From assembly GCA_041661545.1 (NCBI GenBank), contig JBAZUH010000001.1, positions 544,148-608,147 on the forward strand: 64,000 nucleotides of DNA, read 5' to 3'. Position 1 is the stretch's first letter; the number at the start of each line of letters is the position of its first letter. The DNA comes from Candidatus Staskawiczbacteria bacterium (GTDB lineage Bacteria; Patescibacteriota; Minisyncoccia; Minisyncoccales; Staskawiczbacteraceae). The notes under the pieces are model-generated. The model did not search any database. It was not told the origin of the DNA and saw only the letters and a program-made list of their open reading frames with translations. A program made the translations under genes and the position numbers. Shown here piece by piece: positions 141 through 63,330 of this stretch.

Positions 141-1070
141 TTAATTTATATAGTATTTACCGTTGTCGGAATTTATAAATCCTTTCAACTGCATTAACGA
201 TAAAGTGGTGCCAAGCTGGGCAACAGGGGTTGAAAAAAGTCGAGCCATTTCGTCAGCTTTCATAGACTCTCTTTTTAATTGTTCAATAATTTTATTCTCT
301 AAGGTGCCACGCTTACCCGCCGACTTGTCCGCCGAAGTTTTAACGAGGGTGGAAGCCTTTTGTGCACTAGGCAATATTTTAAAAAAATCTAAAATTTGTT
401 TGGCCTCAATTATTGGTTCAGCTCCCTCTCTTATCAATTCAATTGTTCCTTTTGAAACTTCGCTAGTAATAGGGCCCGGCACAGCAAAAATTTTTCTATT
501 AAATTTTTTAGCATAATTTGCAGTAATTAAAGAACCCGACTTTAAAGCAGCTTCTGTAACTAAAACTGCCTTACAAAGCCCGGCCACAATTCTATCTCTC
601 TGCACAAAAGAATAATTTGTTGGCTTAAACCCCGGCTCATATTCTGAAATTATTAGACCGTTATTATCTAAAATTTTATGATAAAGTTCTTTTTGCTGTG
701 GAGGAAAAATTATATCCACCCCACATGGCATAACAGCAATTGTTTTTCCACCGCATTTTACAGCAGCAGAATGAGCCGCTTCATCGCCTCCATACATAAA
801 TCCAGAAACAATTGTAATTCCAGATGCAGCAGCTTCTGTTACCAACTGCTCGGTTACTCTTCTGCCATAAGAAGTTAAATGACGCGAGCCTACAACCGCC
901 AAACAATTTTCTCCCGCCGCAGCGGGATCCCGCCTATCGGCGGGAAAAAATGCATTCCAATTTCCTTTATAATACAATTTTTTAGGACCCGAACTTGCAA
1001 CAAGGTTTTTTAACGCCTCTTTTAAAGCTTTAGGATATTTTGAATCTGTAATTTCAACAGCTTCTACCAT
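141..1070 (-). CDS. dprA: DNA processing protein DprA (Smf)
   Basis: 309 aa with DprA core motifs LAVVGSRHLTSYG, IVSGFMYGGDEAAH, FVQRDRIVAGL and LVTEAALKSGSLITA. Lies next to comM. Confidence 0.9.
   Translation of the reverse strand: MVEAVEITDSKYPKALKEALKNLVASSGPKKLYYKGNWNAFFPADRRDPAAAGENCLAVVGSRHLTSYGRRVTEQLVTEAAASGITIVSGFMYGGDEAAHSAAVKCGGKTIAVMPCGVDIIFPPQQKELYHKILDNNGLIISEYEPGFKPTNYSFVQRDRIVAGLCKAVLVTEAALKSGSLITANYAKKFNRKIFAVPGPITSEVSKGTIELIREGAEPIIEAKQILDFFKILPSAQKASTLVKTSADKSAGKRGTLENKIIEQLKRESMKADEMARLFSTPVAQLGTTLSLMQLKGFINSDNGKYYIN
315..355. repeat. GC-rich ACCCGCC-type element inside dprA, in frame
   Basis: ACCCGCCGACTTGTCCGCCGAAGTTTTAACGAGGGTGG stands out from the AT-rich coding context. 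It encodes the linker ..TSADKSAGKRGT.. and shares the ACCCGCC...GGGT termini with the other copies listed below. Confidence 0.5.
912..945. repeat. GGATCC-core double-hairpin element (copy 1), in frame in dprA
   Basis: TCCCGCCGCAGCGGGATCCCGCCTATCGGCGGGA folds as two adjacent hairpins (TCCCGC/GCGGGA and TCCCGCC/GGCGGGA). It encodes FPADRRDPAAAGE just before the conserved AVVGSR motif. Confidence 0.8.
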
Positions 1071-18535: not shown

Positions 18536-18539
18536 AATC

Positions 18540-22712: not shown

Positions 22713-22797
22713 CGAAATCCGAAACTCAAAATAAATTCAAATTTTCTAAATTCGAAATATAAAATACGTTTCGAATTTCGATATTCGAATTTCGAAT
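22713..22797. repeat. CGAAT/TTCGAA-rich repeat block in the operon leader
   Basis: CGAAW at 22713, 22720, 22753, 22772, 22779, 22786 and 22793. The last four are 7 bp apart (TTCGAATTTCGATATTCGAATTTCGAATTTC). Four TTCGAA palindromes occur within 50 bp. Confidence 0.7.
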
Positions 22798-22818
22798 TTC
22801 TTTTGCTTCACAAAAGCT

Positions 22819-23226: not shown

Positions 23227-23248
23227 TTTCTAATTAAAAATTAATATT

Positions 23249-23908
23249 ATGGCAGAATCTGCAACACAAGCATTTTTAGAAGTGCAAGATATAAGAGAAG
23301 GAGTTTTGCTTTTAAAAAATAATTCTATTAGAGGAATTTTAATGACTTCTTCTATAAACTTTGCTTTAAAGTCTGAAGAAGAACAAACTGCTACAATATA
23401 TGCCTTTCAAAGTTTTTTAAATTCATTAGACTTTTTTTGCCAAATTGTTATTCAATCAAGAAATATAAACATTACTCCATATTTAGATAGTTTAAAAGAT
23501 TTAGAAAATAAACAAACAAACGAATTATTAAAAAAACAAACTATCTCATACAGAGAGTTTATAAAAGAAATGGTGGTGGGGGATGTAGTTATGACAAAAA
23601 GTTTTTATATAGTTATACCATATAATCTTATGGAAATTTTTGGGTTAAAGGGTGCCCAAAAAAAATTCAACTTTGGAGATGCCTCGGGCGGAGCAAACAA
23701 CAAACCAATGGGTGATGATGATTTTGAAAGATGCAAAACACAACTTTGGCAAAGAATGGAATATGTATCTATGGGGCTAAGAAGATGTGGCCTAGAAGCT
23801 GTTCCATTAACTACGCCAGAACTCATAGAATTATTTTGGTCTATACACCATCCCGATCAAGCAGAGGTGGGGTATTATCCAGAAATATTACCCGAATTAT
23901 TAAAATAA
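23249..23908 (+). CDS. Probable detached N-terminal domain of VirB4 (ICE/Firmicutes type)
   Basis: 219 aa. FLEVQDIREGVLLLKNNSIRGILMTSSINFALKSEEEQTATIYAFQSFLNSLDFFCQIVIQS resembles the N-terminus of Orf16-type VirB4 ATPases (from memory). Confidence 0.4.
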   Translation: MAESATQAFLEVQDIREGVLLLKNNSIRGILMTSSINFALKSEEEQTATIYAFQSFLNSLDFFCQIVIQSRNINITPYLDSLKDLENKQTNELLKKQTISYREFIKEMVVGDVVMTKSFYIVIPYNLMEIFGLKGAQKKFNFGDASGGANNKPMGDDDFERCKTQLWQRMEYVSMGLRRCGLEAVPLTTPELIELFWSIHHPDQAEVGYYPEILPELLK

Positions 23909-23926
23909 TAATTTAAAATTATTGCC

Positions 23927-25732: not shown

Positions 25733-25759
25733 AATTTAAAAAATCCTATAATTATACAA

Positions 25760-29725: not shown

Positions 29726-29736
29726 TATTTTATAAT

Positions 29737-30759
29737 ATGTTAAAATTTTTACAAAAAAATAAAGCGTGTCTAATATTATTCTCTACTCTTTTTTTAGGAT
29801 TTGCTAATTTAGCTTCAGCCCTAGAAGTCACCAATGGCCCCTGCTCTAATTCTGATAATTTAGGACAATGCGTAGTAAATATTTTTGATTGGGGAATTGG
29901 CATAGCTGCCATAATAGCCTCGGTGTCATTTGCTATTGGGGCTGTAACATTTATGTTATCTGGAGATAGTGGGGAGAGGTCCTCAAGCGGTAAAGACCGA
30001 ATGAAAGGAGCAGTTTTAGGATTAGTACTGCTGGGCGCTTCTTTCCTTATTATGAAAACAATAAATCCTATCTTAGTTAATCCTGACATTGACTCATTAG
30101 ATGAGGTAGAGCTAGAAACCCCTCCGCGCACCCCAGGTATATATTTTTATCCCGATGCATCTTGCGACAAAACATCTTTATATTATAGCAATACTAGTTT
30201 GGAAAACATTGGTGCCGAAGTTAATGGCATTGAAATTGTAAATGACCTAGGATATAAATATGGCGTTGTGCTACACAAGACTCCGGGACTTGGCGAGGGT
30301 GGAGATTGTCTTGAACCTATATTAGATGAGGGGTGTCACTCAACTGATAATTTTTATGGGGCTATTGATATCTTTTCAATAAATCCAAAACCTATCACGT
30401 CTGGTACTGGTGTAGAGTTTTATAGTGAAGCGCATGGATTGGATAAAGGCTCAAGGGGTGGCCACTATTTAATAAAAGCTGAAGATATGACGGGCGACGA
30501 GGGCACCCCTGGATTAAAAGACTTTGAATGGGATGGATCCATAAATGATATACAAAAACAAGAGTGCCCTGATTTTAAGACTTGTCCAGGATCTATGGAC
30601 GTGAAGGGGAGCTTCTTTGTTGCTGTATATTCTGATTCCAAAGAAGGTGGTCTATATTGTCAAACTTTTACCGATAAAGTTGCGGAGTTTAATGCCGAAC
30701 CAGTAGTACACGATGGCGACTCAGAAATAACTAAAGTTACTATTTTCCCTACTAATTAA
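29737..30759 (+). CDS. Pilin-module fusion protein (paralog A)
   Basis: 340 aa. Same N-terminal module ending KTINPILV, then PGIYFYPDASC.. in a Cys-containing domain. Confidence 0.55.
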   Translation: MLKFLQKNKACLILFSTLFLGFANLASALEVTNGPCSNSDNLGQCVVNIFDWGIGIAAIIASVSFAIGAVTFMLSGDSGERSSSGKDRMKGAVLGLVLLGASFLIMKTINPILVNPDIDSLDEVELETPPRTPGIYFYPDASCDKTSLYYSNTSLENIGAEVNGIEIVNDLGYKYGVVLHKTPGLGEGGDCLEPILDEGCHSTDNFYGAIDIFSINPKPITSGTGVEFYSEAHGLDKGSRGGHYLIKAEDMTGDEGTPGLKDFEWDGSINDIQKQECPDFKTCPGSMDVKGSFFVAVYSDSKEGGLYCQTFTDKVAEFNAEPVVHDGDSEITKVTIFPTN

Positions 30760-30786
30760 TTTTTGTGATATTTCTAATATATATAT

Positions 30787-32085
30787 ATGGAAAATTATAA
30801 AAAGAAACTATACAGATTAATTTTATTAATTATCTTTTTATTAGTTGGTTCTTTTTATTTCCCTATAAATAAAGTTTTTGCTCAATTAGAAGTTAAATAT
30901 CCTGCCCTCCCCACAATAACTGGGGGGACTACTGAACCAGTAAGCGATTTACCAAGCTATGTAAAATATCTGTTTGTGGGAGGAGTATCTATAGGATTTT
31001 TAATTGCTTTGATATCTTTAGTAGTAGCGGGTGTATTATATTTTATATCTCCCATAAATGTTAGCGCAAAAAAAGAAGCTAAAGATAGGATAATGGGTTC
31101 TATTTTAGGGATACTTATCCTTTTATTGTCATATTTAATTATAACAACTATCAACCCACAACTTAATATTTTTACCATAAATAAATTAGAATCTGTTAAA
31201 ACAGAATCGCCCAAAATTAAAAAAGAGCCAGGAGTTTATTTTTATAAAGAAAGCGGAGAAAGTAGGTGTGAGGGGAATACACCCGCTCACACAACAAATA
31301 TTGGAAATTTTGGCGATTTAAAAAATCAAATTAATTCTGTAGATATTGTAAGAGACCCCACATCTGATGTTGCTTATATAGCTATTTTATATGAACATCC
31401 TAATTTTTGGGGAAATTGCCATTATATCAACCCAGATGGGGGATGTGAGTGGCAAAGGCCTTTATATTCATCTGCCTCTATACATAGATATGATTTTAAA
31501 CCAGAGGGCGACGGAATATATTTTTTTCGCAAACCATGCTTCAACACCCAAGAGTACAAAAAAAATAACAACACTGATGACCCCGCAGTCGCGCCCACAT
31601 ATGATTATGACAAACCACTTGATGGAAAAGAATATACTGATATAGAAAAGGTAATTGAATATTGTAAAGAAAATAGTGGTGGTTGGTATCAAATTGAAAA
31701 CTCTGAGGTTACAGGTAAAATTTATACAACCACATTAGATGACTTAAAATTTAAAGATGTTCCAGAAGGGGAAGAAGATTGCATCAAATATGATAAATAT
31801 AACAGATGTACATCTACACAAGCACCATCACTTGGCGGGAAAAATATTTCTTCTATGATAATTGCTGGCGATTATTCAGTAGTTTTTTATAATAAAAAAG
31901 ACCCAAATGAAGGTGGTCGGGATATAGGCAATATTGGATCGGCTGATTGGAGTGCTTGCCAAGAGTTTCCTTCTTCTTATGATATTGATAAATCTGGCAC
32001 ACGACAAATAAAATGGGAAATTGTTATGAATCACAACGGACTCATACTTCCTGATTCTGTGGCTGTTATTCCTATACGTCCATAA
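30787..32085 (+). CDS. Pilin-module fusion protein (paralog B)
   Basis: 432 aa. Same N-terminal module ending TTINPQLN, then PGVYFYKESGESRC.., homologous to paralog A. Confidence 0.55.
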   Translation: MENYKKKLYRLILLIIFLLVGSFYFPINKVFAQLEVKYPALPTITGGTTEPVSDLPSYVKYLFVGGVSIGFLIALISLVVAGVLYFISPINVSAKKEAKDRIMGSILGILILLLSYLIITTINPQLNIFTINKLESVKTESPKIKKEPGVYFYKESGESRCEGNTPAHTTNIGNFGDLKNQINSVDIVRDPTSDVAYIAILYEHPNFWGNCHYINPDGGCEWQRPLYSSASIHRYDFKPEGDGIYFFRKPCFNTQEYKKNNNTDDPAVAPTYDYDKPLDGKEYTDIEKVIEYCKENSGGWYQIENSEVTGKIYTTTLDDLKFKDVPEGEEDCIKYDKYNRCTSTQAPSLGGKNISSMIIAGDYSVVFYNKKDPNEGGRDIGNIGSADWSACQEFPSSYDIDKSGTRQIKWEIVMNHNGLILPDSVAVIPIRP

Positions 32086-39470: not shown

Positions 39471-39974
39471 CTAATAATTTTTTAACGCAGCGCAGATTGC
39501 CAAGCCTATAGCATCAAAAGCATCATCTTTTTTTCGATTATTCTTTGATAAATCAAAATTTTCTATATTAACAGTTTTTTTTATCATTTTCTGAACTTGT
39601 TTCTTTTCGGCTCTACCATATCCTGCAATAGCCATTTTCATTTGTAAAGGAGTAAATTCGCAAACACGTAATTTTTTTTCTGCTGCTGCTAATAAAATAA
39701 CTCCTTTAGTTTGGCTTACAGGTATTATAGTTTTAAGATTTTTAAAAAAGAAAAGCCTTTCTATAGACATTACATTGGGGCGATATTTTTCTATTAACTT
39801 AGTTATTTCTTTATGTGTTTGTTTTAAGCCCTCGCCAGTTGTAGAAAATTTATCAGTTATTATGCATCCAAAGTCAATAACATCTAATGACCCAGAGGGT
39901 GCCCCGGCGGTGTTTTTTTTGATAATTGCATATCCTGTAATTACAGAGCCAGGGTCTACTCCGATGATTATCAT
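39471..39974 (-). CDS. ruvC: Holliday junction resolvase RuvC
   Basis: 167 aa with IIGVDPGSVITGYA and DAFDAIGLAI. Confidence 0.9.
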   Translation of the reverse strand: MIIIGVDPGSVITGYAIIKKNTAGAPSGSLDVIDFGCIITDKFSTTGEGLKQTHKEITKLIEKYRPNVMSIERLFFFKNLKTIIPVSQTKGVILLAAAEKKLRVCEFTPLQMKMAIAGYGRAEKKQVQKMIKKTVNIENFDLSKNNRKKDDAFDAIGLAICAALKNY

Positions 39975-44187: not shown

Positions 44188-45243
44188 TTAGAATAGGCCG
44201 CTTTGCTTGCGGAGATGGCCTAAGCCGAGGTGGTTGTAGGCAAGTGCAGTGGCCATTCGGCCTTTTGGGGTGCGTTCAAGTAAGCCACATTGCATTAAAT
44301 AGGGTTCATAAATATCTAAAATTGTTTCTTCTTCTTCCATAGCAGCTGCTGCTAAAGATTGCAATCCAACTGGGCCTCCTCCAAATTTTTCTATTAAGGC
44401 TAATAAAATATTTCGGTCGCTTGGTTCTAGGCCCATTAAATCTACCTCTAAAGAATTAAGGGCATGTTCGGCAATTGCTTTTGTTATTATTTCAGCATTT
44501 TGAACTTGGGCAAAATCTCTTACTCTTTTTACAAGCCTGTTTGCGACTCTTGGGGTAAACCTTGAGCGCTCGGCAATTGCTGTTATGGCTTCGGGTTCCA
44601 TTTTTATTTTTAAAAGTTTTCCAGATCTTTCAATTATTTTTTTAACATCTTCTATATTATAAAAATTAAGTTGAAAAGTGGCACCAAATCTGTTTCGTAG
44701 GGGAGCAGATAATAACCCAGGGCGAGTGGTGGCTCCAATTAAAGTAAACTTAGGCAATTTTAGCTCCATTGTACGGGCCATGGGCCCTTTGCCCAAAATT
44801 AAATTTAATTTATATTCTTCTAGTGCAGGATATAAATACTCTTCAATAGTTTTGTTAATTCTGTGTATCTCATCTAAAAACAAAACATCACCCTCTGACA
44901 AATTTGTTAAAATTGCAGCTAAATCTCCTGCTCTTTCTAGGGCAGGGCCAGAAGTAGATTTAATTTTTTTACCCATTTCGTTGGCCACTATATAGGCTAG
45001 GGTGGTTTTTCCTAAGCCTGAGTTTCCATAAAGCAATAAATGGTCTGGACTTTGACCTCTTTGTTTGGCTGCAGTAATAATTACTTGTATATTTTCTTTA
45101 ATTTTATCTTGACCAACATAATCATGCCAAGAAGTCGGCCTTAAAGCCGAATCTAGAGTTTCATCCGTTGCCTCGCCAAAGCTTTTAGCGGAGGCGGGTT
45201 CTTTCCTGTTGTTGGTTGGTGTAGGGGTTGACATATGATACAA
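44188..45243 (-). CDS. ruvB: Holliday junction branch-migration helicase RuvB
   Basis: 351 aa with GNSGLGKTTLA, LFLDEIHR and RFG..F.L.FY. Confidence 0.95.
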   Translation of the reverse strand: MYHMSTPTPTNNRKEPASAKSFGEATDETLDSALRPTSWHDYVGQDKIKENIQVIITAAKQRGQSPDHLLLYGNSGLGKTTLAYIVANEMGKKIKSTSGPALERAGDLAAILTNLSEGDVLFLDEIHRINKTIEEYLYPALEEYKLNLILGKGPMARTMELKLPKFTLIGATTRPGLLSAPLRNRFGATFQLNFYNIEDVKKIIERSGKLLKIKMEPEAITAIAERSRFTPRVANRLVKRVRDFAQVQNAEIITKAIAEHALNSLEVDLMGLEPSDRNILLALIEKFGGGPVGLQSLAAAAMEEEETILDIYEPYLMQCGLLERTPKGRMATALAYNHLGLGHLRKQSGLF

Positions 45244-49650: not shown

Positions 49651-49689
49651 ACCCGCCTGCATCCTTGCGGATTATGGCGAGGCACAGTA
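49651..49689. repeat. ACCCGCCT...GGCGAGGCACAGTA element, intergenic copy
   Basis: ACCCGCCTGCATCCTTGCGGATTATGGCGAGGCACAGTA, 10 nt before the exonuclease ATG. Compare 51785-51819. Confidence 0.65.
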
Positions 49690-49698: not shown

Positions 49699-50613
49699 AT
49701 GGAAAAAAATCAGAGGTTAATTATTATAGATTCTAATGCATTGTTGCACAGGTCGTTTCATGCTTTGCCACCGCTAAAAACAAAATCAGGGCAGGAGACT
49801 GGGGCTGTTTATGGATATTTGCTTACACTTTTTAAGGCACTAACTGATTTATGTCCCTCCGGGACATCTCCCGAAGGGAGAAAACCTCTCTATATTGTTG
49901 CTTGTTTTGATACAAAAGGGGCAACATTTCGCCACGAAATGTATAAAGATTATAAAGTGCAAAGGCCAGCAACTCCTAGTGGAATTGTTTCACAAATTCC
50001 TGTGGCAAAAGAAGTTGTTGAAGCCTTGGGCATTCCTATTTTTGCTAAAGAGGGGGTAGAGGCCGATGATTTAATTGCTACTATTTGCACAAAAAATTCA
50101 GAATTAGAAATTTTTATTGTTTCTGGAGATATGGATAATACTCAACTAGTTAATGAAAAGATAAAAGTTTATACTTTGGGCAAAGGGATAAAAGATACAA
50201 TTATTTATGATATTAACAGGGTGCGAGAAAGGTTTGGAGTAGAGCCTTCGCAAATGGTAGATTTTAAAGCTTTAATGGGTGATGCTTCTGATAACATCCC
50301 AGGAGTTGAAGGTATTGGAAAAAAAACAGCAGCAGAAATAATACAAAAATATGGCAGTATAAAAAATCTTTATGAGGAGTTGGCCACAGACACAGCTGTT
50401 TTAAAACCAAAAGTAAAAGAAGCTTTAAAGCAAAACAAAGAATCTGCTTTAATGTCTCTTGAATTAGCACGAATGAAAGCAGATGTTGATATAGATTTTA
50501 AAATTGAAGATTGTAAATTTGGAAATTTTGACAAAAATAAAGTTGCGGAAGTTTTTAATAGTTTAGAATTTTATAGTCTCGTTGACCGCTTGTCACAGTT
50601 GGGCTATAATTAA
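49699..50613 (+). CDS. Stand-alone 5'-3' exonuclease (Pol I N-terminal/FEN-type)
   Basis: 304 aa with IIDSNALLHRSFHALP, GVEADDLIAT and H3TH motif GDASDNIPGVEGIGKKTA. Confidence 0.87.
   Translation: MEKNQRLIIIDSNALLHRSFHALPPLKTKSGQETGAVYGYLLTLFKALTDLCPSGTSPEGRKPLYIVACFDTKGATFRHEMYKDYKVQRPATPSGIVSQIPVAKEVVEALGIPIFAKEGVEADDLIATICTKNSELEIFIVSGDMDNTQLVNEKIKVYTLGKGIKDTIIYDINRVRERFGVEPSQMVDFKALMGDASDNIPGVEGIGKKTAAEIIQKYGSIKNLYEELATDTAVLKPKVKEALKQNKESALMSLELARMKADVDIDFKIEDCKFGNFDKNKVAEVFNSLEFYSLVDRLSQLGYN
49853..49881. repeat. GC-rich double hairpin insert in the exonuclease gene, in frame
   Basis: GTCCC-TCC-GGGAC A TCTCCC-GAA-GGGAGA, encoding LCPSGTSPEGRK between conserved blocks. Confidence 0.7.
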
Positions 50614-51255: not shown

Positions 51256-52167
51256 ATGCCAGAGCTACCCGAAGTAGAAACAACAGTGAAAGGTTTAAAT
51301 GCAAAGGTCCTTAATAGGACCTTTGTTTCTGTTTGGTCTGATTGGAAAAAGTTAGTTAAAAAACCGAAAGATTTTTTGCAATTTGAAAAACAAATAAAAA
51401 ATAAAAAAATTATAAAAATATGGCGTAGAGCCAAAAATATAATATTTGATTTGTCTGGAGGCCTCTCGCTTTTAGTGCATCAAAAAATGACGGGTCATAT
51501 GTTGGTGGGCAAGTGGTCCCGCCACAGCGGGATCCCGCCCGAGGCGGGAAGCATATGGAAACCAATAAAAGAAGGTCCGCTTAATGATCCATATAATAGG
51601 TTTTTGCATTTGATATTTTTTCTTGATAATAAAGAAATGATAGCTCTTTCAGATGCTAGAAAATTTGCAAAAGTTGAGTTATGGGAAAAAAAAGAATTAG
51701 AAAGCGAACTTAAAAAAATAGGGCCTGAGCCCTTGGAAAAATCTTTTACTTTTGAAAAATTTAAAGAAAATTTGTTATGGCAAAACCCGCCTTCGCCAAG
51801 GCTACGGCAGGGCACAGTAAAGCAGATTTTAATGGTGCCAGAAGTGATAGCTGGCATTGGAAATATTTATGCATCAGAAATTTTATGGTGGGCAAAAGTT
51901 CATCCCCAAAAAAGTGTTGCAAAGCTAAATGAAAAAGAGTTAAGGTTAATTTATAAAGCTATAAAAAGCGTTTTACAAAAAGCAGTTAAATTGGGTGGAG
52001 AAAGTTTCTCTGATTATAGAAAGCCAGATGGAACCAAAGGAGATTTTGATACAGAAAGAAGAGTTTATAAAAGAGAGGGGCAAAAGTGTGGCAGGTGTAG
52101 CGTAAAAATTAAAAGAATTAAATTTGGCGGTAGAAGCACCTTTTTCTGCCCCAAATGCCAATCATGA
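51256..52167 (+). CDS. mutM: Formamidopyrimidine-DNA glycosylase
   Basis: 303 aa with MPELPEVET, GIGNIYASE and zinc finger CGRC..CPKC. Confidence 0.92.
   Translation: MPELPEVETTVKGLNAKVLNRTFVSVWSDWKKLVKKPKDFLQFEKQIKNKKIIKIWRRAKNIIFDLSGGLSLLVHQKMTGHMLVGKWSRHSGIPPEAGSIWKPIKEGPLNDPYNRFLHLIFFLDNKEMIALSDARKFAKVELWEKKELESELKKIGPEPLEKSFTFEKFKENLLWQNPPSPRLRQGTVKQILMVPEVIAGIGNIYASEILWWAKVHPQKSVAKLNEKELRLIYKAIKSVLQKAVKLGGESFSDYRKPDGTKGDFDTERRVYKREGQKCGRCSVKIKRIKFGGRSTFFCPKCQS
51517..51549. repeat. GGATCC-core double-hairpin element (copy 2), in frame in mutM
   Basis: TCCCGCCACAGCGGGATCCCGCCCGAGGCGGGA, encoding SRHSGIPPEAG. Confidence 0.85.
51785..51819. repeat. ACCCGCCT...GGCAGGGCACAGTA element, in frame in mutM
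   Basis: ACCCGCCTTCGCCAAGGCTACGGCAGGGCACAGTA, encoding NPPSPRLRQGTV. Confidence 0.7.
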
Positions 52168-53114
52168 TTTATTTTATATACGGCGAAGATTCATACAGGT
52201 CAAAAAAGAAATTAGAAGAAATAGTTTTAAGTTACAAAGAAAAACATAAATCTGGGTTAAACTTAATTTATGTAGATACTCTTACCAACAGCTTTGGCGA
52301 TTTTTATAACAGTTTGAAAATTAATTCCATGTTTGCTGAAAAAAAATTAATAGTTTTGAGAAATTTATTTTTAACTAAGAGCGAATCAGTTTCTGGTTGG
52401 CAAGAAGATTTTTTAGAGAATATAAAAAAAATAGAAGAATTAAAAGACATAGTTGTTGTGTATGAAAGTAGTTTGCCAGATAAAAGAACAAAACTTTTTA
52501 AAGCTTTACAAAAAAATACCAAGTGCCAGGAATTTAACTTATTAACAGATGTTAATTTAAAAAAATGGATAGCTAGTGAGTTTTTATTACAAAAAGTAAA
52601 AATAAATAATGATGCAGTTGATTTGCTTGCCAGCTATATTGGGAGTGATTTGTGGCGAATGGCAAATGAAATAAATAAATTATCAAACTACAAAAAAGGA
52701 ACAATAGTATTAAAAGAAAATGTGGAACTATTAGTAAAGCCTAATATAGATAATGATATTTTTAAAACAATAGATGCCCTAGCTTCTAAAAATAAAAAAT
52801 TAGCCCTTTCTCTTTTGCATAAGCACATGGATGGGGGAGACTTTCCTTTATATTTATTATCTATGATTGCATATCAGTTTAGAAATCTTTTGATAATAAA
52901 AGATTTATCCGCTCAAGGTGGACCAGCCTCGGGTTGGCAAAAAAAATCTGGTTTGCACCCCTTTGTTATTCAAAAAAGTAGTTATTTGTGTAGTCAATTT
53001 TCTATGGTTGAATTGAAAAAAATTTACCAAAAAATTTTTCAAATAGATTTAAATATAAAAACAGGAAAAATTGAAGCAGAAACAGCTATAGACTTATTAA
53101 TTTCTGAAATCTAA
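52155..53114 (+). CDS. holA: DNA polymerase III delta subunit
   Basis: 319 aa. N-terminus IYFIYGEDSYRSKKKLEEI, with length and organisation typical of HolA. Confidence 0.75.
   Translation: MPIMIYFIYGEDSYRSKKKLEEIVLSYKEKHKSGLNLIYVDTLTNSFGDFYNSLKINSMFAEKKLIVLRNLFLTKSESVSGWQEDFLENIKKIEELKDIVVVYESSLPDKRTKLFKALQKNTKCQEFNLLTDVNLKKWIASEFLLQKVKINNDAVDLLASYIGSDLWRMANEINKLSNYKKGTIVLKENVELLVKPNIDNDIFKTIDALASKNKKLALSLLHKHMDGGDFPLYLLSMIAYQFRNLLIIKDLSAQGGPASGWQKKSGLHPFVIQKSSYLCSQFSMVELKKIYQKIFQIDLNIKTGKIEAETAIDLLISEI
52908..52937. repeat. GC-rich double hairpin insert in holA, in frame
   Basis: TCCGC-TCAAG-GTGGA CCAGCC-TCG-GGTTGG, encoding SAQGGPASGW. Confidence 0.55.
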
Positions 53115-53460: not shown

Positions 53461-55476
53461 TTATTTGTTATTCAATTTTTTTATTAAATCTCTTATCTCA
53501 GCTGCTCTTTCAAAATCTAAATTTTTTGCCGCTATTTTCATTTCTTTTTCTAAAAGTTTTTGGTCATGTATTGCAAAAAATTCTTCATTAATGCTTTCTT
53601 TATCTGAGTTTGCAGAAGAATCTTTAGAAAATTTCCAATCTCTTATGTTAGAAACAATTGTTGCAGGAGTTATATTATTTTTTTTATTATAATCTTCTTG
53701 TATTTTTCTTCTTCTGTTTATTTCTTTTATAGCATTTTTCATAGACAGAGTTTCTTTATCAGCATACAAAATAACTCGTCCATTTAAATGTCTAGCAGCC
53801 CTTCCCATAGTTTGTATTAATGTTGTTTCGTTTCTCAAAAATCCTTCTTTATCAGCATCCAAAATAGCCACTAAAGAAACTTCTGGTAAATCTATTCCTT
53901 CTCTTAGTAAATTAATTCCTACAAGTACATCATATTTGCCCTCTCTGAGATTTTTTAATATTTCGGGCCTCTCCATAGTTTTGATTTCAGAATGTAGGTA
54001 TTGAGTTTTTATCCCTTTTTCGGTTAAATAATCAGAGATTTCTTCAGCCAGTTTTTTTGTTAAGGTAACAACAATTGTTCGATGTTTTTTATCTACTTGT
54101 TTTTTTATTTCTTCTATTAGGTCTTTAATTTGGTTTTCGGTTTTTTTTATTTCTATAGATGGCTCTAAAAGTCCGGTAGGTCTTATTATTTGCTCAATAA
54201 TATGGCTATTAGCCTTTTGCTTTTCAAAAATAGCGGGGGTGGCCGATACATAAATTGTTTGTTTTTGTCTTTCTTCAAATTCTTTAAAATTTAAAGGTCT
54301 ATTATCAATGGCCGAGGGCAATCTAAACCCAAAATCAATTAGGGTTTGTTTTCTAATTCTGTCTTGTACTGACATGGCCCTAATTTGAGAAATAGAAATA
54401 TGTGACTCATCTATAAAAATTAATGACCCGCCAGGGGCCTGCTCTGAGCCTGCCTGCAGTGAGCTTGTCGAATCTGTCGAAGGGTTAAAATAGTTAAAGT
54501 AATCAACTAAAGAGAAAGGGGCTTGCCCGGGTTTTCTAAACTCCATATGGCTAGAATAATTTTCTATGCCCTGGCATCGGCCAGTTTCAGCCAACATTTC
54601 TAAATCGTAGTTTGTTCTTTGTTCTAATCTTTCTGCTTCTAAGTTTTTGCCTAATTTTTTAAGTTTTATTAGTTGGTTTTTTAATTCTGTTTTTATATTT
54701 TCAATTGCAATTTTAAATTTATCTTGAGGGGCTACCCAAAAAGTAGCGGGGAATAATGTAATTTTATCTCCCGATGATTGGTATTTTTTATCTAAACTTG
54801 GGGTGGACTCAGAAATTTTTTCTATTTTGTTTCCATTAAATTCAATGCGAAATATTTTTTCTCCTGTAACTATATATATTTCAACCATATCTCCTCTAAC
54901 GCGAAAAGTGCCCGGCTTAAAATCAATATCATTTCTTTGATATTGCAAGCCTGTAAGTAAAATCAAAAAATCTTTTCTTGTAATTTTTTCATTTACTTTA
55001 ATTTCTAAAGAAGTGCGTCCATAGTTTTCTGGAGAACCAATATTATAAATACAAGAGACCGAAGCAACTACTATAACATCTTTTCTTGCTATAACATCTT
55101 GAACAGCTGCATGGCGCAACCTATCTATTTCTTCATTAATTTTTGCGTCTTTTTCTATATATGTATCTGAATGCGGTATATATGCTTCTGGTTGATAATA
55201 GTCATAATAAGAAACAAAATAATGAACTGCATTGTTAGGAAAAAATTCTTTAAACTCTTGATATAGTTGAGCAGCCAAAGTTTTATTTGGAGAAATTATT
55301 AGGGTTGGTTTTTGTATTTTTTCAATAACATTTGCTAAAGTAAAAGTTTTTCCCGATCCCGTTACGCCCAAAAGCACCTGGTCTTTTATGCCAGATTCTA
55401 AATTATTGGTCAGTTGTTTTATAGCATTTGGCTGATCTCCTGTGGGTTTAAATTTTGATTTTAGTTTAAATTTCAT
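53461..55476 (-). CDS. uvrB: Excinuclease ABC subunit B
   Basis: 671 aa with GVTGSGKTF, FIDESH, helicase motifs and a C-terminal UVR domain (LDFERAAEIRD). Confidence 0.96.
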   Translation of the reverse strand: MKFKLKSKFKPTGDQPNAIKQLTNNLESGIKDQVLLGVTGSGKTFTLANVIEKIQKPTLIISPNKTLAAQLYQEFKEFFPNNAVHYFVSYYDYYQPEAYIPHSDTYIEKDAKINEEIDRLRHAAVQDVIARKDVIVVASVSCIYNIGSPENYGRTSLEIKVNEKITRKDFLILLTGLQYQRNDIDFKPGTFRVRGDMVEIYIVTGEKIFRIEFNGNKIEKISESTPSLDKKYQSSGDKITLFPATFWVAPQDKFKIAIENIKTELKNQLIKLKKLGKNLEAERLEQRTNYDLEMLAETGRCQGIENYSSHMEFRKPGQAPFSLVDYFNYFNPSTDSTSSLQAGSEQAPGGSLIFIDESHISISQIRAMSVQDRIRKQTLIDFGFRLPSAIDNRPLNFKEFEERQKQTIYVSATPAIFEKQKANSHIIEQIIRPTGLLEPSIEIKKTENQIKDLIEEIKKQVDKKHRTIVVTLTKKLAEEISDYLTEKGIKTQYLHSEIKTMERPEILKNLREGKYDVLVGINLLREGIDLPEVSLVAILDADKEGFLRNETTLIQTMGRAARHLNGRVILYADKETLSMKNAIKEINRRRKIQEDYNKKNNITPATIVSNIRDWKFSKDSSANSDKESINEEFFAIHDQKLLEKEMKIAAKNLDFERAAEIRDLIKKLNNK
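54426..54485. repeat. GC-rich insert of about 60 nt in uvrB, in frame
   Basis: ACCCGCCAGGGGCCTGCTCTGAGCCTGCCTGCAGTGAGCTTGTCGAATCTGTCGAAGGGT. It encodes NPSTDSTSSLQAGSEQAPGG immediately before the DESH box, where E. coli UvrB (from memory) has only ..DYLPADGLLVVDESH. Confidence 0.7.
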
Positions 55477-55498: not shown

Positions 55499-56092
55499 AT
55501 GATAGCATTTTTAGAGGGAAAAATTATATTAAAAAAGGAGAAGTTTGTGATTGTTGAAGTGGCCGGCATTGGCTACAAGGTTTTTTTAAACCGCCAAGCC
55601 CTAATAACTTTACCCGCCTCCGCTCCAGAAGAGCTTCGGCAGGGCAAGCCAGAAATTAATTCTGTAAAACTCTTTATATACCATGAGACAAAAGAAGACA
55701 AGTCTGATTTGTATGGATTTCTTACTTATGAGGAATTTGAATTTTTTGAGATATTAATGGACATTAGAGGAGTGGGGCCAAGGTCAGCATTAGATATTTC
55801 AGCTTTAGGTTCTTTAGACAAAATAAAAGATAGAATTTTAAAACAAGACGAAAAAATATTTGAGGGCATTCCAGGAATTGGTTCAAAAAAGGCAATGACT
55901 ATAATTTTAGAGCTTACAGGTAAAATAAACATACTCGGTCAGAAAAAAAGTTCTGGCGACGAAGCAGAAAGCGCTTTGGTTCAGCTTGGGTTTTCAAAGC
56001 AACAAGCCAAAGATGCTTTGAGTCGTGTGCCCGCCTCTATAAAAGATTCAGAAGAGCGCATAAAATTAGCTTTAAAAAATTTAGGCAAATAA
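55499..56092 (+). CDS. ruvA: Holliday junction DNA helicase subunit RuvA
   Basis: 197 aa with VEVAGIGYKV and HhH motifs IRGVGPRSAL and IPGIGSKKA. Confidence 0.9.
   Translation: MIAFLEGKIILKKEKFVIVEVAGIGYKVFLNRQALITLPASAPEELRQGKPEINSVKLFIYHETKEDKSDLYGFLTYEEFEFFEILMDIRGVGPRSALDISALGSLDKIKDRILKQDEKIFEGIPGIGSKKAMTIILELTGKINILGQKKSSGDEAESALVQLGFSKQQAKDALSRVPASIKDSEERIKLALKNLGK
55612..55650. repeat. ACCCGCCT...GGCAGGGCA element, in frame in ruvA
   Basis: ACCCGCCTCCGCTCCAGAAGAGCTTCGGCAGGGCAAGCC, encoding PASAPEELRQGKP in the OB-domain loop. Confidence 0.7.
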
Positions 56093-56525: not shown

Positions 56526-57812
56526 ATGAGCGTTAAAGAAATAATTCACCCGATTAAATACCGCGAAGCGTTGATTTCGTTTTTAACGAAATCATTTAAC
56601 CGGGTAAAAAAATTTATACCGAAATTTTTGATAAGAATTTATCATTATAAATTAGCTTTGTTGGGAGCTGTGGTTTTTGGTTTTCCTGGCCTTAATAAAA
56701 ATATAAAAATAATAGGGGTAACAGGCACCAGTGGGAAATCAACTACAGTAGATTTTGTAACCAGAATTTTTGACGAGGCAAATGAAAAGGTGGCTTCGGT
56801 GTCTTCTATTAGATTTAAAGTTGCAAATAAAGAATGGGAGAATAAATATAAAATGACAATGCCTGGCCGTTTTGTAATTCAAAAACTATTGAGCCAGGCA
56901 AAAAAAGCAGGTTGTAAATATGTTGTTTTAGAGGTTACATCAGAGGGAATAAGACAATTTCGTCATAAATTTATAAATTTTGATTGTGTGGTTTTTACTA
57001 ACTTAACACCCGAACATATTGAAAGTCATGGAGGGTTTGAAAATTATAAAAAAGAAAAATTAAAATTATTTAAAGAAAATAAAAATATACATATTATAAA
57101 TATAGATGACAAAAATTCAAAAGAATTTTTGGATATTCCAGCTAAACAAAAAATTGAATTTTCTATCAAAGATGCAGAAAATATAAAGTTTGATTCCAAC
57201 TTAATTAGTGGGTTTAATATTTATAATGCTTTATCTGCTATTTCTGTTGCAAGAGTTTATGGGATTAGTTTAGATGTTTGTAAAAAAGCTTTAGAAAAAA
57301 TAAAAGTTATTCCAGGAAGAATGGAAGTGGTGTTAGAATTTCCTATTAAAGTTATTGTTGATTATGCGCATACCCCCGACCAACTTGAAGCAGTTTATAA
57401 AACATTTTCCGCCAAAGGCGGATCCGCCTTTGGCGGAAGCCTCGTTTGTGTTTTAGGTTCTTGTGGTGGGGGAAGAGACAAATGGAAAAGGCCTGTTTTA
57501 GGAGAAATAGCAAAAAAATATTGTAAAGAAATTATAATTACCAACGAAGACCCATATGACGAAGATCCACTTTCTATTATGAAAGAAATAGAAAGTGCCC
57601 TGTTGTATGACGGGGCTAATTCTAAGCACCATATGATTTTAGACAGGAAAGAAGCCATAGAAAAGGCAATAAAGCTTGCTAAACCTGGAGATGTGGTTAT
57701 AATTACAGGAAAGGGGTCTGAACCTTGGATGTGTCTAGAAAATGGACGCAAAATACCATGGAACGATAAGCAAATAGCACAAGATGCTGTTAAAAAATTT
57801 TTTACCCCGTAA
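56526..57812 (+). CDS. Mur ligase family protein (MurE-like)
   Basis: 428 aa with IGVTGTSGKSTT, DYAHTPDQLE, GGGRDKWKRP and GKGSE. Confidence 0.8.
   Translation: MSVKEIIHPIKYREALISFLTKSFNRVKKFIPKFLIRIYHYKLALLGAVVFGFPGLNKNIKIIGVTGTSGKSTTVDFVTRIFDEANEKVASVSSIRFKVANKEWENKYKMTMPGRFVIQKLLSQAKKAGCKYVVLEVTSEGIRQFRHKFINFDCVVFTNLTPEHIESHGGFENYKKEKLKLFKENKNIHIINIDDKNSKEFLDIPAKQKIEFSIKDAENIKFDSNLISGFNIYNALSAISVARVYGISLDVCKKALEKIKVIPGRMEVVLEFPIKVIVDYAHTPDQLEAVYKTFSAKGGSAFGGSLVCVLGSCGGGRDKWKRPVLGEIAKKYCKEIIITNEDPYDEDPLSIMKEIESALLYDGANSKHHMILDRKEAIEKAIKLAKPGDVVIITGKGSEPWMCLENGRKIPWNDKQIAQDAVKKFFTP
56548..56605. repeat. AT-rich three-way-junction element B2 (within the annotated 5' end of the Mur ligase gene)
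   Basis: ACCCGATTAAAT ... ATTTAACCGGGT closing stem (1 mismatch) enclosing CGC-GAA-GCG and GATTTCG-TTTTTAA-CGAAATC. Confidence 0.55.
57417..57448. repeat. Perfect 32-nt palindrome with GGATCC core (copy 4, variant), in frame in the Mur ligase gene
   Basis: TTCCGCCAAAGGCGGATCCGCCTTTGGCGGAA, encoding SAKGGSAFGG between DYAHTPD and the GGGRDK block. Confidence 0.85.
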
Positions 57813-61126: not shown

Positions 61127-62098
61127 ATGATAGAAAATATAAAAGAAGAAATTGAAGATAAAATTATAGATTATATTAATTCTAGCGTAACTGGTAGATT
61201 GATAGTTTTTAAGCCCGATAAAAAGGGGATGGATGACTATTTAGTTGTAGAAAGAAGAGGAAAATATAAAGAAGATAAAATATATCTTGAAATTAATAGT
61301 TTAGTTTTGCCAGCCCAAAATAAAAATTTTATAAAAGATTTTTCGCAAGAAAAGTTTAAAGCAGACAAAAACTTTTATTTAATTTTTGCTTACTTTGACG
61401 AAGTTACACAAAAAATAAATGATTATATATGGATTATTCCATCATTAAAGTTTCAAGATATAGCGGAGGTTGTAAAACATTCCAACAACAAGAAGTCTCT
61501 AAGGTTTGAGTCTTCTTCTAATTTTAAAGATAAAAATAAATATTCTGAATTCTTAATAAACATAAAAGATTTAGGAGATATATTATTAGGGGCTTTAAAA
61601 GACAAAAAGCAAGCTAAATTTCAGGCAGTTGATTTTGATGGTAAAAGTTTGATAAATTTAGAAAATTTAAAAGAATTTTTATGTAATGCTCGTCAAAATA
61701 CTTATGCAGCAAACTCATCGGGAATAGATAATCCAAGGCTTTTAGAATCTAAACAGCTAGAATTTCAAAAGGGGGAATATTTTTATAGGGATGTTTATTT
61801 TACTGGTAAAACAAAATTTATAGGCCAAGAAATTATTTATCAAGATTTAAAGCCTATTTGGGGTATGAATTATATAGGAAAAGCTATTGGCAAATTAGAA
61901 ACAAATTTTTTAAAAGAATCTTTAATGGAGTTATCTGATAAATGTCGTCTTGGACAAGAATGTGAATATAATAAAAGAGAATATAAATATAAAGACAAGG
62001 GGGTTGGAGATGTTAGTGAATTTTCTGGTAAAGAGGAAATTCTCTTAAATGAAAAAAGTATTTATAAATTAGATTATCAGGGCGGTTTAATCTCATGA
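61127..62098 (+). CDS. Two-domain protein: unassigned N-terminal domain plus DUF5680-like C-terminal domain
   Basis: 323 aa. The C-terminal part (FLCNARQNTYAA.., PIWGMNYIG, FLKESL, FSGKEEI, YQGGLI) matches my recollection of DUF5680. ATGA overlap with the next gene. Confidence 0.45.
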   Translation: MIENIKEEIEDKIIDYINSSVTGRLIVFKPDKKGMDDYLVVERRGKYKEDKIYLEINSLVLPAQNKNFIKDFSQEKFKADKNFYLIFAYFDEVTQKINDYIWIIPSLKFQDIAEVVKHSNNKKSLRFESSSNFKDKNKYSEFLINIKDLGDILLGALKDKKQAKFQAVDFDGKSLINLENLKEFLCNARQNTYAANSSGIDNPRLLESKQLEFQKGEYFYRDVYFTGKTKFIGQEIIYQDLKPIWGMNYIGKAIGKLETNFLKESLMELSDKCRLGQECEYNKREYKYKDKGVGDVSEFSGKEEILLNEKSIYKLDYQGGLIS

Positions 62099-63330
62099 AG
62101 TTTATAGCAGATTTTCATATACACTCAAAATATTCTAGGGCAGTGTCTCCTTTAATGAATTTAGAAAATTTAGCTAAGTGGGCAGAAATAAAAGGAGTAA
62201 AAGTTTTAGGCACAGGTGATTTTACTCACCCTAAATGGCTTGGCGAAATAAAAAAACAACTAAGCCCCGCAGAGCGGGGTCTTTTTTCCCGCCACAGCGG
62301 GATCCCGCCAAAGACGGGAAAGCTTGGCAGTAAAACTCGTTTTATTCTTACAACTGAGATAAGTTGTATATATAAAAAACTAGGAAAAGTTAGAAAAATT
62401 CATATTATTGTTTTTGCTCCATCAATAGCCACGGTAGAAAAAATAAACTTAGCATTATCTAAAATTGGCAATTTACATTCAGACGGTAGGCCAATTTTGG
62501 GGCTAGATGCAAAAGAGTTAGTAAAGATTGTTTTAAATATAGATAAAAATTGTTTAATAGTGCCAGCTCATGCCTGGACACCATGGTTTTCTATTTTTGG
62601 CTCAAAGTCAGGATTTAATTCTTTAGAGGAGTGTTTTGAAGAATATACAAAATATATTTATGCAATTGAAACTGGGTTGTGTTCAAATCCTGCTATGAAT
62701 TGGAGAATATCTAAACTAGATAAAATTACTTTAATTTCTAACAGTGATGCACACTCTCTTGCTAAAATTGGACGGGAAGCAAATGTTTTTGATACGGAGC
62801 TGAGTTATAAGGGGATTGTTGAGGCCATTAAGTTTCCAGAAAAAAAGTTTTTATATACTATAGAATTTTTTCCTGAAGAAGGTAAATATCATTATGATGG
62901 TCATCGTAATTGTGGTATAAGTTTAGCTCCTCAACAATCTAAAAAGAATAATAATATATGTCCTAAATGCAACAAACCCTTGATAATAGGGGTTTTAAAT
63001 AGGGTAGAAGAATTGGCTGATAGGCCAGAAGGATTTTTGCCTAAAAAAGGAATTCCATTTAAAAGTTTAATTCCTTTAAATGAAATAATAGCTGAATCAA
63101 TTGGCGTTTCAACAGCATCAAAAAAAGTTATAAAATATTATGATAATTTAATAAAAAATTTAGGACCAGAGTTAGAAATATTATTAGAATCAACAGAAAA
63201 AGATATAAAAGAAAAATCTTTACCAGAAATTGCCAAAGGGGTTATAAAAATGCGCAAGGGGCGCGTTTTTATTGAGCCAGGATATGACGGTGTTTATGGA
63301 AAAATTAATATTTTATTTAATAATGGTTGA
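62095..63330 (+). CDS. PHP-domain endonuclease Q-like protein
   Basis: 411 aa with FIADFHIHSKYSRA, PAHAWTPWF, SNSDAHS and Zn-ribbon CPKCNKP. Confidence 0.72.
   Translation: MKFIADFHIHSKYSRAVSPLMNLENLAKWAEIKGVKVLGTGDFTHPKWLGEIKKQLSPAERGLFSRHSGIPPKTGKLGSKTRFILTTEISCIYKKLGKVRKIHIIVFAPSIATVEKINLALSKIGNLHSDGRPILGLDAKELVKIVLNIDKNCLIVPAHAWTPWFSIFGSKSGFNSLEECFEEYTKYIYAIETGLCSNPAMNWRISKLDKITLISNSDAHSLAKIGREANVFDTELSYKGIVEAIKFPEKKFLYTIEFFPEEGKYHYDGHRNCGISLAPQQSKKNNNICPKCNKPLIIGVLNRVEELADRPEGFLPKKGIPFKSLIPLNEIIAESIGVSTASKKVIKYYDNLIKNLGPELEILLESTEKDIKEKSLPEIAKGVIKMRKGRVFIEPGYDGVYGKINILFNNG
62287..62319. repeat. GGATCC-core double-hairpin element (copy 3), in frame in the EndoQ-like gene
   Basis: TCCCGCCACAGCGGGATCCCGCCAAAGACGGGA, encoding SRHSGIPPKTG. 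The first 24 nt are identical to copy 2. Confidence 0.85.

Follow-up and report, generated by a model that had tools for sequence, protein, structure and literature searches.

Short G+C-rich palindromic segments that are read in frame as part of conserved genes in one bacterium, yet are missing from the same genes of its relatives, raise the question of how they arrived there and whether they move. This question is posed by a stretch of 64,000 nucleotides from Candidatus Staskawiczbacteria bacterium (Patescibacteriota, part of the candidate phyla radiation, CPR), hereafter called the window, in which such segments lie in ruvA, mutM and ruvB, in front of a 5'-3' exonuclease (FEN) gene and, in decayed form, in dprA. 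The segments belong to a real family of 30–36-nt inserts that is dispersed across very different genomes, and its copies enter new sites as clean blocks without target-site duplication. They are probably copies of an ultra-small, non-autonomous, palindromic insertion element.

Copies of the unit in the window

The motif ACCCGCCT-N(8-30)-GGCRRGGCA matches the window four times, against 0.00 matches expected from 100 dinucleotide-preserving shuffles. The matches lie in ruvA, in mutM, in the spacer before the exonuclease gene and, on the minus strand, in ruvB (45169-45199), the last being additional to the three copies listed in an earlier note on this DNA, all of whose quoted sequences are present where it had placed them. 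A covariance model (R1), trained on canonical copies from outside the window and run on the window at E<=10, returned three firm copies (mutM, ruvA and ruvB) and one decayed copy (dprA). The ruvA copy (55613..55648, plus strand; CCCGCCTCCGCTCCAGAAGAGCTTCGGCAGGGCAAG; 29.2 bits, E=3e-5) is 36 nt or 12 codons long and encodes the peptide PASAPEELRQGK; its apical stem is enlarged (GCTC-cagaa-GAGC) and its 3' basal arm carries a bulged A. The mutM copy, at what is called site A here (51786..51816, plus strand; CCCGCCTTCGCCAAGGCTACGGCAGGGCACA; 34.5 bits, E=1e-6), is read as N-PPSPRLRQG-T and amounts to a net gain of 8 codons relative to orthologs, while the ruvB copy (45167..45199, minus strand; ACCCGCCTCCGCTAAAAGCTTTGGCGAGGCAAC; 21.2 bits, E=0.003) is read as E-PASAKSFGEA-T in the N-terminal tail of RuvB. 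The decayed full-length copy in dprA (324..354, minus strand; TTCCACCCTCGTTAAAACTTCGGCGGACAAG, within …STLVKTSADK…) aligns to the model from end to end with 14.7 bits (E=0.13), and a partial second 3' arm, TCGGCGGGTAAG (SAGK), comes after it. A probable copy in the spacer upstream of the exonuclease gene (49651..49687, plus strand; ACCCGCCTGCATCCTTGCGGATTATGGCGAGGCACAG) has the termini and the stem/internal-loop/stem architecture of the others, with the DNA fold ((((((...((((....))))...)))).)), and differs from them in its interior. Its membership, as the earlier note proposed it, thus stands on termini and fold; it was not recovered by R1 at E<=10, and it is the weakest member of the family.

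The host genes were identified by their Pfam domains as ruvA (55499..56092, plus strand; RuvA_N, HHH_5, RuvA_C), mutM/fpg (51256..52167, plus strand; Fapy_DNA_glyco, H2TH, zf-FPG), ruvB (44188..45243, minus strand; RuvB_N, AAA_lid_4, RuvB_C) and dprA (PF02481), and the gene after the intergenic copy was likewise assigned as a 5'-3' exonuclease. The RuvA of the window is identical to an NCBI protein annotated as RuvA of Candidatus Staskawiczbacteria, the closest relatives at species level by MutM are Staskawiczbacteria metagenome-assembled genomes, and the GC content of the window is 33.6%. The ACCCGCC end lies on the coding strand in all window copies. Self-complementary termini and a variable core had been described correctly, whereas a frame giving ..RQG.. 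is not common to all genic copies. The copies in ruvA and mutM share it at the 3' end but differ in frame at the 5' end (P-A-S-A vs N-P-P-S), the ruvB copy reads ..SFGEA.., and no fixed reading-frame rule applies to the window copies. A hairpin in pnp that had been regarded as a relative reaches only 14.4 bits, as a generic CCTGCC/GGCAGG hairpin, and its membership is not demonstrable. A string in uvrB (ACCCGGGCAAGCC, 54522-54532, minus strand) resembles the element with its interior deleted; as a collapsed copy it was rejected, since it encodes the conserved UvrB motif PGQAP and the resemblance is probably due to chance.

Empty and filled sites

Among about 73 MutM orthologs from fetched and aligned loci, the site-A insert is present in four (the window, L001, L023 and L011), where it adds 8 codons (NPPSPRLRQG and variants), whereas all other orthologs read ..K-[G/N/D]-KKGK... 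The ruvA insert occurs in 2 of 29 orthologs from the loci, the window and its sister L001, as extra residues between LP and EI, and the figure of about 12 extra residues given earlier proved exact (12 codons, 36 nt, relative to close orthologs). In 120 close RuvA homologs from the databases, about 75 have no insert (184-187 aa, LPEIGE), while about 45 carry one in the forms PASAEASAGKP, PAFAPEELRQGKP, PASPAKRGEP and others. The extra N-terminal residues of RuvB are unique to the window among its orthologs, with a shortened remnant in L001, and the intergenic copy is missing from the orthologous spacer of five relatives (L001, L045, L004, L002 and L003), in which a TATGAT-type -10 region precedes the start codon. 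These alignments bear out the proposal of a short GC-rich palindromic family that lies in frame in genes and is missing from orthologs. The outcomes that would have spoken against it did not appear: further copies exist in ruvB and outside the window, and the residues are not conserved in orthologs. By this comparison, the copies are lineage-specific in-frame insertions.

An empty and a filled ruvA site can be compared directly. The empty site of L245 reads TTG|CCAGAAATT (..AAA TTG CCA GAA ATT GCT CAG CCC GTA..) and the filled site of L246 reads TTA[36 nt]CCAGAAATT, with the block CCC GCC TCC GCT TCA GAG GAG CTT CGG CAG GGC AAG followed by CCA GAA ATT GTT CAG CCC GTA and by 17 codons that are those of L245. 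The difference is a clean 36-nt block between a Leu and a Pro codon with no target duplication, only CC being ambiguous at the junction, and the conserved CAAG tail is part of the inserted block. Across the copies, no target-site duplication of at least 3 nt exceeded the control at any offset, no conserved upstream target was found (position -1 is A in 48%), and the flanks of different copies share nothing beyond orthology, which rules out a larger parent element. Junction microhomology was seen in mutM, where a pre-existing AAGGGCAAG gives 7 nt (GGGCAAG) of the 3' end, and in ruvA, where the gene gives 2-3 nt; at the empty ruvA site TTR-CCA, the CC extends the CAAG tail to the CAAGCC form that is common in GC-rich copies. 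These junctions are suggestive, though anecdotal. In L023 (19470-19560, minus strand), uvrB is preceded by a truncated duplicate of its first 14 codons (MKFKLKSKFKPTGD), and a copy occupies the leader between this duplicate and the true start (MTNFKLKSKFSATGDQP); the insertion goes along with a duplication of about 40 nt of the target, which the clean ruvA insertion does not show.

In the AlphaFold model of the window RuvA (mean pLDDT 82), the block 41-50 has a mean of 46 and residues 45-52 lie below 50, so that the insert is predicted to occupy a low-confidence loop between a helix and a strand of an otherwise confident fold. The same loop after LPEIGE (window residues ~39-52) carries unrelated inserts in other lineages, such as SSNLAKPSDDGHG, TINP.. 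and the L023-type SRLDRGSSTTSSSG (proteins P0041, P0049, P0053, P0057, P0068, P0083, P0102 and P0109), and appears to be an insertion hot spot.

Structure of the unit

The modal unit was derived from 122 distinct copies collected outside the window, among the matches listed, to which all counts for metagenomic copies below also refer. The canonical form has 30 nt, CCCGCC-TYC-GCY-NA-RGC-TWC-GGCGGG-CAAG, and is composed of a 6-bp G+C basal stem, a symmetric 3x3 pyrimidine internal loop, an apical stem-loop whose stem varies in length from 2 to ~7 bp, and an unpaired CAAG tail. The orthologous copies in ruvA of L001 (CCCGCCTCCGCCGAGGCTTCGGCGGGCAAG) and mutM of L023 (CCCGCCTTCGCCAAGGCTTCGGCGGGGCAAAG) are less decayed and hence reveal the ancestral form.

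Covariation was measured only at positions left free by the search patterns, with 2000 permutations as control. Among the free apical cells, 104 of 134 are paired, compared with 75.5±4.1 after permutation (maximum 89), and 101 of the paired cells are Watson-Crick and three G-T. Columns 13/16 of the 30-nt form hold T-A (n=27), C-G (n=25), T-G (n=1) or unpaired bases (n=2), which 0/500 shuffles reach, and this pair closes a loop of 2 nt. RNA is not known to form a loop of this size. Since wobble pairs are nearly absent and a covarying pair closes a 2-nt loop, the covariation points to dyad symmetry at the level of DNA rather than to a selected RNA fold; the symmetry could stem from a single-stranded hairpin or cruciform, from a symmetric duplex site, or from palindrome-preserving copying. 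Compensatory differences are visible between orthologous ruvA copies (GCTC-cagaa-GAGC in the window, GCC-ga-GGC in L001 and GCTCC-aaa-GGAGC in L215) and in the SerRS gene (CCACGT/ACGTGG in L125 vs CCGCGT/ACGCGG in L147). An RNA structure was rejected on the same two grounds and for want of an Rfam family: an Rfam 15 scan of the window returned only tRNAs, and no Rfam family matched at the element positions in 14 phage loci at the gathering threshold or in three loci at E<=10.

Distribution beyond the window

In 1.27 Mb of MutM-centred Patescibacteria loci, R1 gave 17 matches, among them three further sites within MutM (two in L033 and one in L034) and the one in the uvrB leader of L023 mentioned above. 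Independent sites were also seen in the Parcubacteria loci L058, L047, L046, L040 and L039. The density is about one copy per 75 kb in related loci and 4-5 copies per 64 kb in the window.

The family had been treated as specific to this genome, a view that had to be given up, as the 30-nt unit recurs nearly unchanged in many metagenomic lineages and in GC-rich phages. A strict pattern taken from the CPR copies found 46 copies in 44 contigs of IMG/VR, nearly all with 56-73% GC, and the carrier contigs encode lambda-type portal, GpA terminase and capsid proteins. The tail CA(A/G)GCC and the commonest apical variants (CGAG, CAAG), which the pattern left unspecified, match those of the CPR copies, and the L001 ruvA copy is identical to copies in the phage contigs L080 and L082 at 32-33 of 33 positions. 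Compared with its closest homolog, one phage portal protein carries the element as an in-frame insertion in a loop, while in related phages it lies immediately upstream of the portal start.

A metagenome scan with the pattern and an A/T-rich downstream filter (at least 120 contigs) placed 86 of the 122 copies in contigs below 46% GC. With open reading frames (ORFs) taken as the longest stop-to-stop frames, ORFs of at least 100 aa contain 62 of these 86 copies, and 24 lie outside; the latter are 28%, compared with the ~10-12% of non-coding DNA assumed for such genomes (p=5e-5). The genic copies are read in sense orientation in 41 cases and in antisense in 21 (p=0.015), and 45 of 62 are in frame 0 (CCC GCC .. 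GGC; p=3e-10), which encodes PAFAKASAGK, or PAEALAKAG on the other strand. Their length is divisible by three in 43 of 55 cases (78%, 38 of them exactly 30 nt; p=1e-11), as it is in 10 of 18 non-genic copies. The 61 host ORFs carry 126 Pfam families and include SerRS, MetRS, GatB, UvrD, SMC, RecA, glycosyltransferases and ABC transporters, and both orientations occur in many unrelated genes. Essentially no copies were found in cultured phages, plasmids and E. coli genomes, and literature searches by concept and by DNA words returned no description of the element.

Two contigs hold pairs of copies. In L203 (1482-1570), two identical copies lie 61 nt apart in a repeated CAACAA context, and in L202 (1262-1907) two different copies are read in different frames of one 445-aa ORF; these pairs suggest local duplication or repeated hits in one gene.

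History within lineages

In neighbour-joining trees, the carriers of the mutM site-A insert (the window with L001, and L023 with L011) are separated by non-carriers; these trees were built from one or a few genes, with support values unread and short internal branches. Between lineages, the mutM elements are identical at 28/30, 26/30 and 24/30 nt (93%, 87% and 80%), compared with 71-75% for the mutM genes of the same lineages overall and 56-60% at third positions, and only the first comparison is individually significant (p=0.008). The RuvA carriers all share a linked downstream signature, FIYH..KEDKSDLY, and P0012, the closest protein to the window RuvA outside the insert (91.6% identity), has neither insert nor signature, while in P0031 the signature is present and the insert missing. 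Decayed copies are found in L011, in the ruvB remnant of L001 and in the dprA relic, and nested hairpins in mutM of L001 and in L033. Insertion more than once at favoured sites, precise loss, and recombination that transfers gene segments may all have contributed, and some combination of them fits these patterns.

Origin and possible mechanism of spread

The explanation that we favour, and hold to be probable, is that the copies derive from an ultra-small insertion element that does not encode its own mobility, and we infer that this element is, or was, mobile as such. The unit would fold as single-stranded or cruciform DNA with basal stem, internal loop, apical stem-loop and CAAG tail. As a 10-codon, G+C-rich unit it has few or no stop codons, and its favoured frame yields a bland peptide, PA[F/S]AxA[S/T]AGK, or PAEALAKAG on the other strand, so that insertions may survive in compact, ~90% coding genomes if a surface loop, a terminus or a spacer receives them in frame. 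This would account for the copies seen in the RuvA loop, a MutM linker and the RuvB N-terminal tail, selection presumably acting as the filter that gives the biases in frame and length. After insertion, the apical part is remodelled with its dyad symmetry kept, and later decay proceeds by G/C-to-A/T changes and small indels, as is visible in the GGCAGGG and GGCGAGG arms of the window and in the dprA relic. The clustering in DNA-repair genes of the window would be mostly a local accident, since local gene content and the diverse hosts elsewhere largely explain it.

Several observations weigh against a mobile element. No transposase or candidate enzyme was found by Pfam among the 66 ORFs of the window, no match to Y1/RAYT proteins in ~2.4 Mb of fetched loci (phmmer), and no candidate enzyme in the phage loci. 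Apart from the palindrome itself no terminal inverted repeats are present, and neither a duplicated nor a conserved target was seen, so that no known transposition chemistry is indicated. The window copies are shared with relatives at 75-88% protein identity, with no sign of recent movement here. The mutM element is more conserved than its gene, a hint that it is under constraint, was inserted repeatedly or was converted, and is not neutral junk; a single consensus in AT-rich CPR bacteria and GC-rich phages is unlike the species-specific repetitive extragenic palindromes (REPs) or miniature inverted-repeat transposable elements (MITEs). The metagenomic and viral sets were chosen by exact match to both arms and are uninformative on arm conservation. 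Finally, folding z-scores of 0.0 to -2.1 against shuffles make the hairpins thermodynamically unexceptional; exceptional hairpin stability is thus unsupported, and because such z-scores are ordinary for G+C-rich strings, the case for structure rests on architecture and covariation, not on stability.

The same z-scores, together with the tendency of G+C-rich 30-mers to fold well by chance, could be taken to favour chance resemblance or an assembly artefact, an explanation that is effectively refuted by the four observed matches against none expected, by significant covariation, by the recurrence of the inserts at orthologous codons of genomes that different studies assembled independently, and by the 33 nt over which the L001 ruvA copy and phage contigs are identical. 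A functional cis-element kept by the host is improbable. Such an element, in the form of a cruciform or hairpin of DNA or of a hairpin of RNA, would be recognised by a conserved factor and would tune expression, recombination or repair of genome-maintenance genes or serve as a DNA-uptake or recombination tag in naturally competent CPR bacteria. The window copies all lie in or beside DNA-metabolism genes (ruvA, ruvB, mutM, FEN and dprA) and all in sense orientation, the window holds the competence genes dprA, a ComEA-like HHH protein and a PilB-type ATPase, the hairpin is maintained via compensatory changes, and the mutM copy is more conserved than synonymous sites. Moreover, the independent events in the window and the CPR loci are 8/8 sense (p=0.008), and MutM, with 5.6% of the sequence of the mutM-centred loci, received 5 of ~14 independent events there (p=7e-4, post hoc). 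The wider sample speaks against such a role: specificity for DNA-repair genes, which the window suggests, is rejected by the 126 Pfam families of its hosts, SerRS, MetRS and GatB among them, and strict sense orientation by its ratio of 41 to 21. Copies also lie in phage portal and terminase genes, their density is far below that of known uptake sequences, decay is visible in L011, in the L001 ruvB remnant and in the dprA relic, and an RNA element would have to do with almost no G-T pairs, a pair closing a 2-nt loop and no Rfam match. A functional element is kept in consideration, at low probability, because the mutM excess and the 8/8 sense events remain unexplained.

Two further explanations, both of which we regard as very improbable, dispense with an element that moves by itself. 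Under one, a single rare insertion per site spread solely by homologous recombination or gene-segment transfer among transformable Patescibacteria. The separation of mutM site-A carriers by non-carriers would fit this, although it was seen in trees of single or few genes with support values unread, and the linkage of the RuvA insert to its downstream signature, with P0012 lacking both, is the pattern of a mosaic gene. Such spread would however not account for dozens of non-homologous sites, in unrelated genes and in phyla of 30-70% GC, at which the 30-nt units are nearly identical, nor for three different sites within MutM. Under the other, the unit is generated de novo time and again, for instance by template switching at stalled forks or by the copying of a tRNA, another conserved RNA or a comparable short universal template. 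Junction microhomology in ruvA and mutM agrees with this, as does apical remodelling that always keeps dyad symmetry, as intrastrand template switching would, yet template switching needs a donor copy and is a copying mechanism, not an origin. The TYC/TWC loop and the CAAG tail are, moreover, conserved non-palindromic features and not products of palindrome-generating mutation. As to a conserved RNA template, no Rfam family matches. In favour of a tRNA template, two tRNAs of the window, tRNA-Arg and tRNA-Lys, have the 3' ends GGCGAGGGCA and GGCAGGGGCA (8579-8607 and 9057-9084), which equal the decayed 3' arms GGCGAGGCA and GGCAGGGCA of the window copies except for one G. An origin from tRNA was rejected, as none of the 93 tRNAs in the fetched DNA has the required GCCCGCC acceptor stem with its matching 5' strand, and the resemblance is probably a coincidence.

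If, then, the copies are those of a mobile palindromic element, the best guess as to its mover, which we hold with low confidence, is a trans-acting enzyme that recognises hairpins on single-stranded DNA, by analogy with REP/RAYT systems or with the 'peel-and-paste' transposition of IS200/IS605. Microhomology-guided template switching and homologous recombination of already-inserted segments are possible contributors. We also consider, with more doubt than belief, that the unit is the smallest horizontally spreading DNA element so far, a 30-nt 'coding-compatible' selfish module that crosses between CPR bacteria, other bacteria and phages. Such a module would combine three adaptations, namely a length of exactly 10 codons, the absence of stop codons in the favoured frames and a harmless Ala/Ser/Gly-rich peptide, would keep one recognition sequence across phyla of 30-70% GC, and would be moved by a yet unrecognised enzyme or along an enzyme-free single-stranded-DNA route.

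Were this so, the lower size limit of mobile or parasitic DNA would fall far below that of MITEs and Rickettsia palindromic elements (RPEs), with a 30-nt family that extends across phyla and sits in essential genes. It would also explain odd low-complexity peptides in patescibacterial and phage proteomes, such as PAFAKASAGK, PPSLKLRRA and RLRRGFGG, which are one DNA unit read in different frames. Peptides such as LPASAPEELRQGKPEI, if detected, would show that the element is translated. The unit would offer a marker for recent insertion, excision and recombination in uncultured lineages and call for caution in alignments, phylogenies and structure predictions of CPR proteins, and the search for a hairpin-recognising enzyme would become a co-occurrence problem.

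Relation to known elements

The unit takes its place among the miniature palindromic insertion elements, of which several kinds share part of its features. RPEs, reportedly described by Ogata et al. in 2000, are likewise palindromic, occur in an AT-rich reduced genome and in frame in essential genes, are translated as extra surface segments and are missing from orthologs. They are ~100-150 bp long and confined to Rickettsiales, in contrast to a unit of 30-36 nt that follows one consensus in CPR bacteria and GC-rich phages, and they are set apart here by size and host range as described. The best mechanistic analogy is provided by REPs, their REPIN doublets and the associated RAYT enzymes, with which the unit shares an imperfect palindrome of 20-40 nt, a conserved non-palindromic tetranucleotide at one foot, the lack of target duplication and a hairpin that is presumably recognised on single-stranded DNA. 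REPs are extragenic and species-specific, have GT(A/G)G at the 5' foot and a RAYT gene, and often form inverted doublets, whereas the unit is mostly genic (62 of the 86 AT-rich copies among the matches listed and 4 of 5 in the window, with the marginal dprA relic counted), has a CAAG tail at the 3' end and no 5' GT(A/G)G, and follows a cosmopolitan consensus.

G+C-rich palindromes of 30-50 nt also occur as GC clusters in yeast mitochondria and as 'byp' elements in those of Magnusiomyces, in AT-rich genomes and partly in coding sequence. The unit resembles them as a G+C-rich palindromic insertion in AT-rich DNA; they are organellar, and byps, which the ribosome skips, are under no need to keep a length divisible by three, whereas 78% of the genic copies listed here are multiples of three and the frame runs through, which makes translation the simplest reading. 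Small dispersed repeats (SDRs) of heterocystous cyanobacteria, reportedly described by Elhai et al. in 2008, are similar in behaviour only, being tiny (21-27 nt) hairpin repeats that are present or absent at orthologous loci, become nested and have no known mobilising enzyme; they differ in sequence and host range. A 10-codon in-frame lifestyle and a presence in phages are not known from SDRs. Elhai et al. (2008) are cited in PMC5861425 and PMC3116915.

Palindrome-associated transposable elements (PATEs) of the IS200/IS605 type share the lack of target duplication and of terminal inverted repeats and the hairpin-based recognition with the unit, but their two subterminal hairpins differ from each other and their insertion site lies 3' of a conserved tetra- or pentanucleotide, whereas the unit has a single hairpin and no conserved upstream target. 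The terminal inverted repeats and target-site duplications that define MITEs are missing, and DNA uptake sequences (DUS/USS) are species-specific and occur about once per kb, compared with 4-5 copies per 64 kb here and the same motif in unrelated taxa. The unit thus lacks defining features of each known kind, by its size (RPE, MITE), by its genic and cosmopolitan occurrence without GTAG (REP), or by the missing target or paired ends (IS200/IS605). Unusual for a miniature palindromic insertion element are the 10-codon unit, a consensus that extends from AT-rich CPR bacteria to GC-rich phages, and the lack of any sign of its means of movement.

Further hairpins and genomic context

The window contains other hairpin families. 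One is a double hairpin, TCCCGCC-ACA-GCGGGA-TCCCGCC-NNN-GGCGGGA, with copies in dprA (908-946, minus strand), in mutM (51504-51558, plus strand) and in a gene at 62095-63330 (62285-62318, plus strand); two genes read it as ..SRHSGIPP[E/K][A/T]G.., and in dprA it is read from the opposite strand. Its mutM insert is unique to the window among the ~73 orthologs and unrelated to the 30-nt unit. Another double hairpin, CCGCC-CAA-GGCGG-A-CCAGCC-TCG-GGCTGG, lies in holA (52909-52939) and in other positions in four relatives (L001, 11417-11449; L023, 7522-7554; L002, 262-305; L011, 17307-17352). Neither the strict pattern of the TCCCGCC double hairpin nor the CCGCC-CAA-GGCGG family had a match in IMG/VR, and the cosmopolitan spread is therefore specific to the 30-nt family. 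Further G+C-rich hairpins in genes were found in a Mur ligase gene (57408-57444), FEN (49853-49878), pnp (10952-10985), ruvC (39887-39916) and uvrB (54422-54457). One of these hairpins is a perfect palindrome with 15-bp arms, TTCCGCCAAAGGCGG-AT-CCGCCTTTGGCGGAA, read as FSAKGGSAFGGSL, and the CCTGCCTGCC..GGCAGG type occurs in L001, L023 and L003 as well. The genome seems to be colonised by several hairpin families.

The region from 14000 to 22600 reaches a GC content of 0.47, compared with 0.33 overall, contains several large ORFs with no Pfam match as well as a Sortilin/BNR-like protein, an M23/LysM peptidase and KsgA, and may be acquired DNA. It is followed by a conjugation or type IV secretion (T4SS)-like cluster (22750-32082) with a PrgI-like protein, a TraG/VirB4-type ATPase, a T4SS pilin and a protein of 1330 aa for which no domain was matched. 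Between 32140 and 36850, jag and yidC on the minus strand and dnaA and dnaN on the plus strand flank the most AT-rich part of the window (27-28% GC), so that a replication origin is likely located there. Since the ruvB copy of the 30-nt unit lies on the strand opposite to the other right-arm copies, the orientation of the copies follows transcription, not replication.

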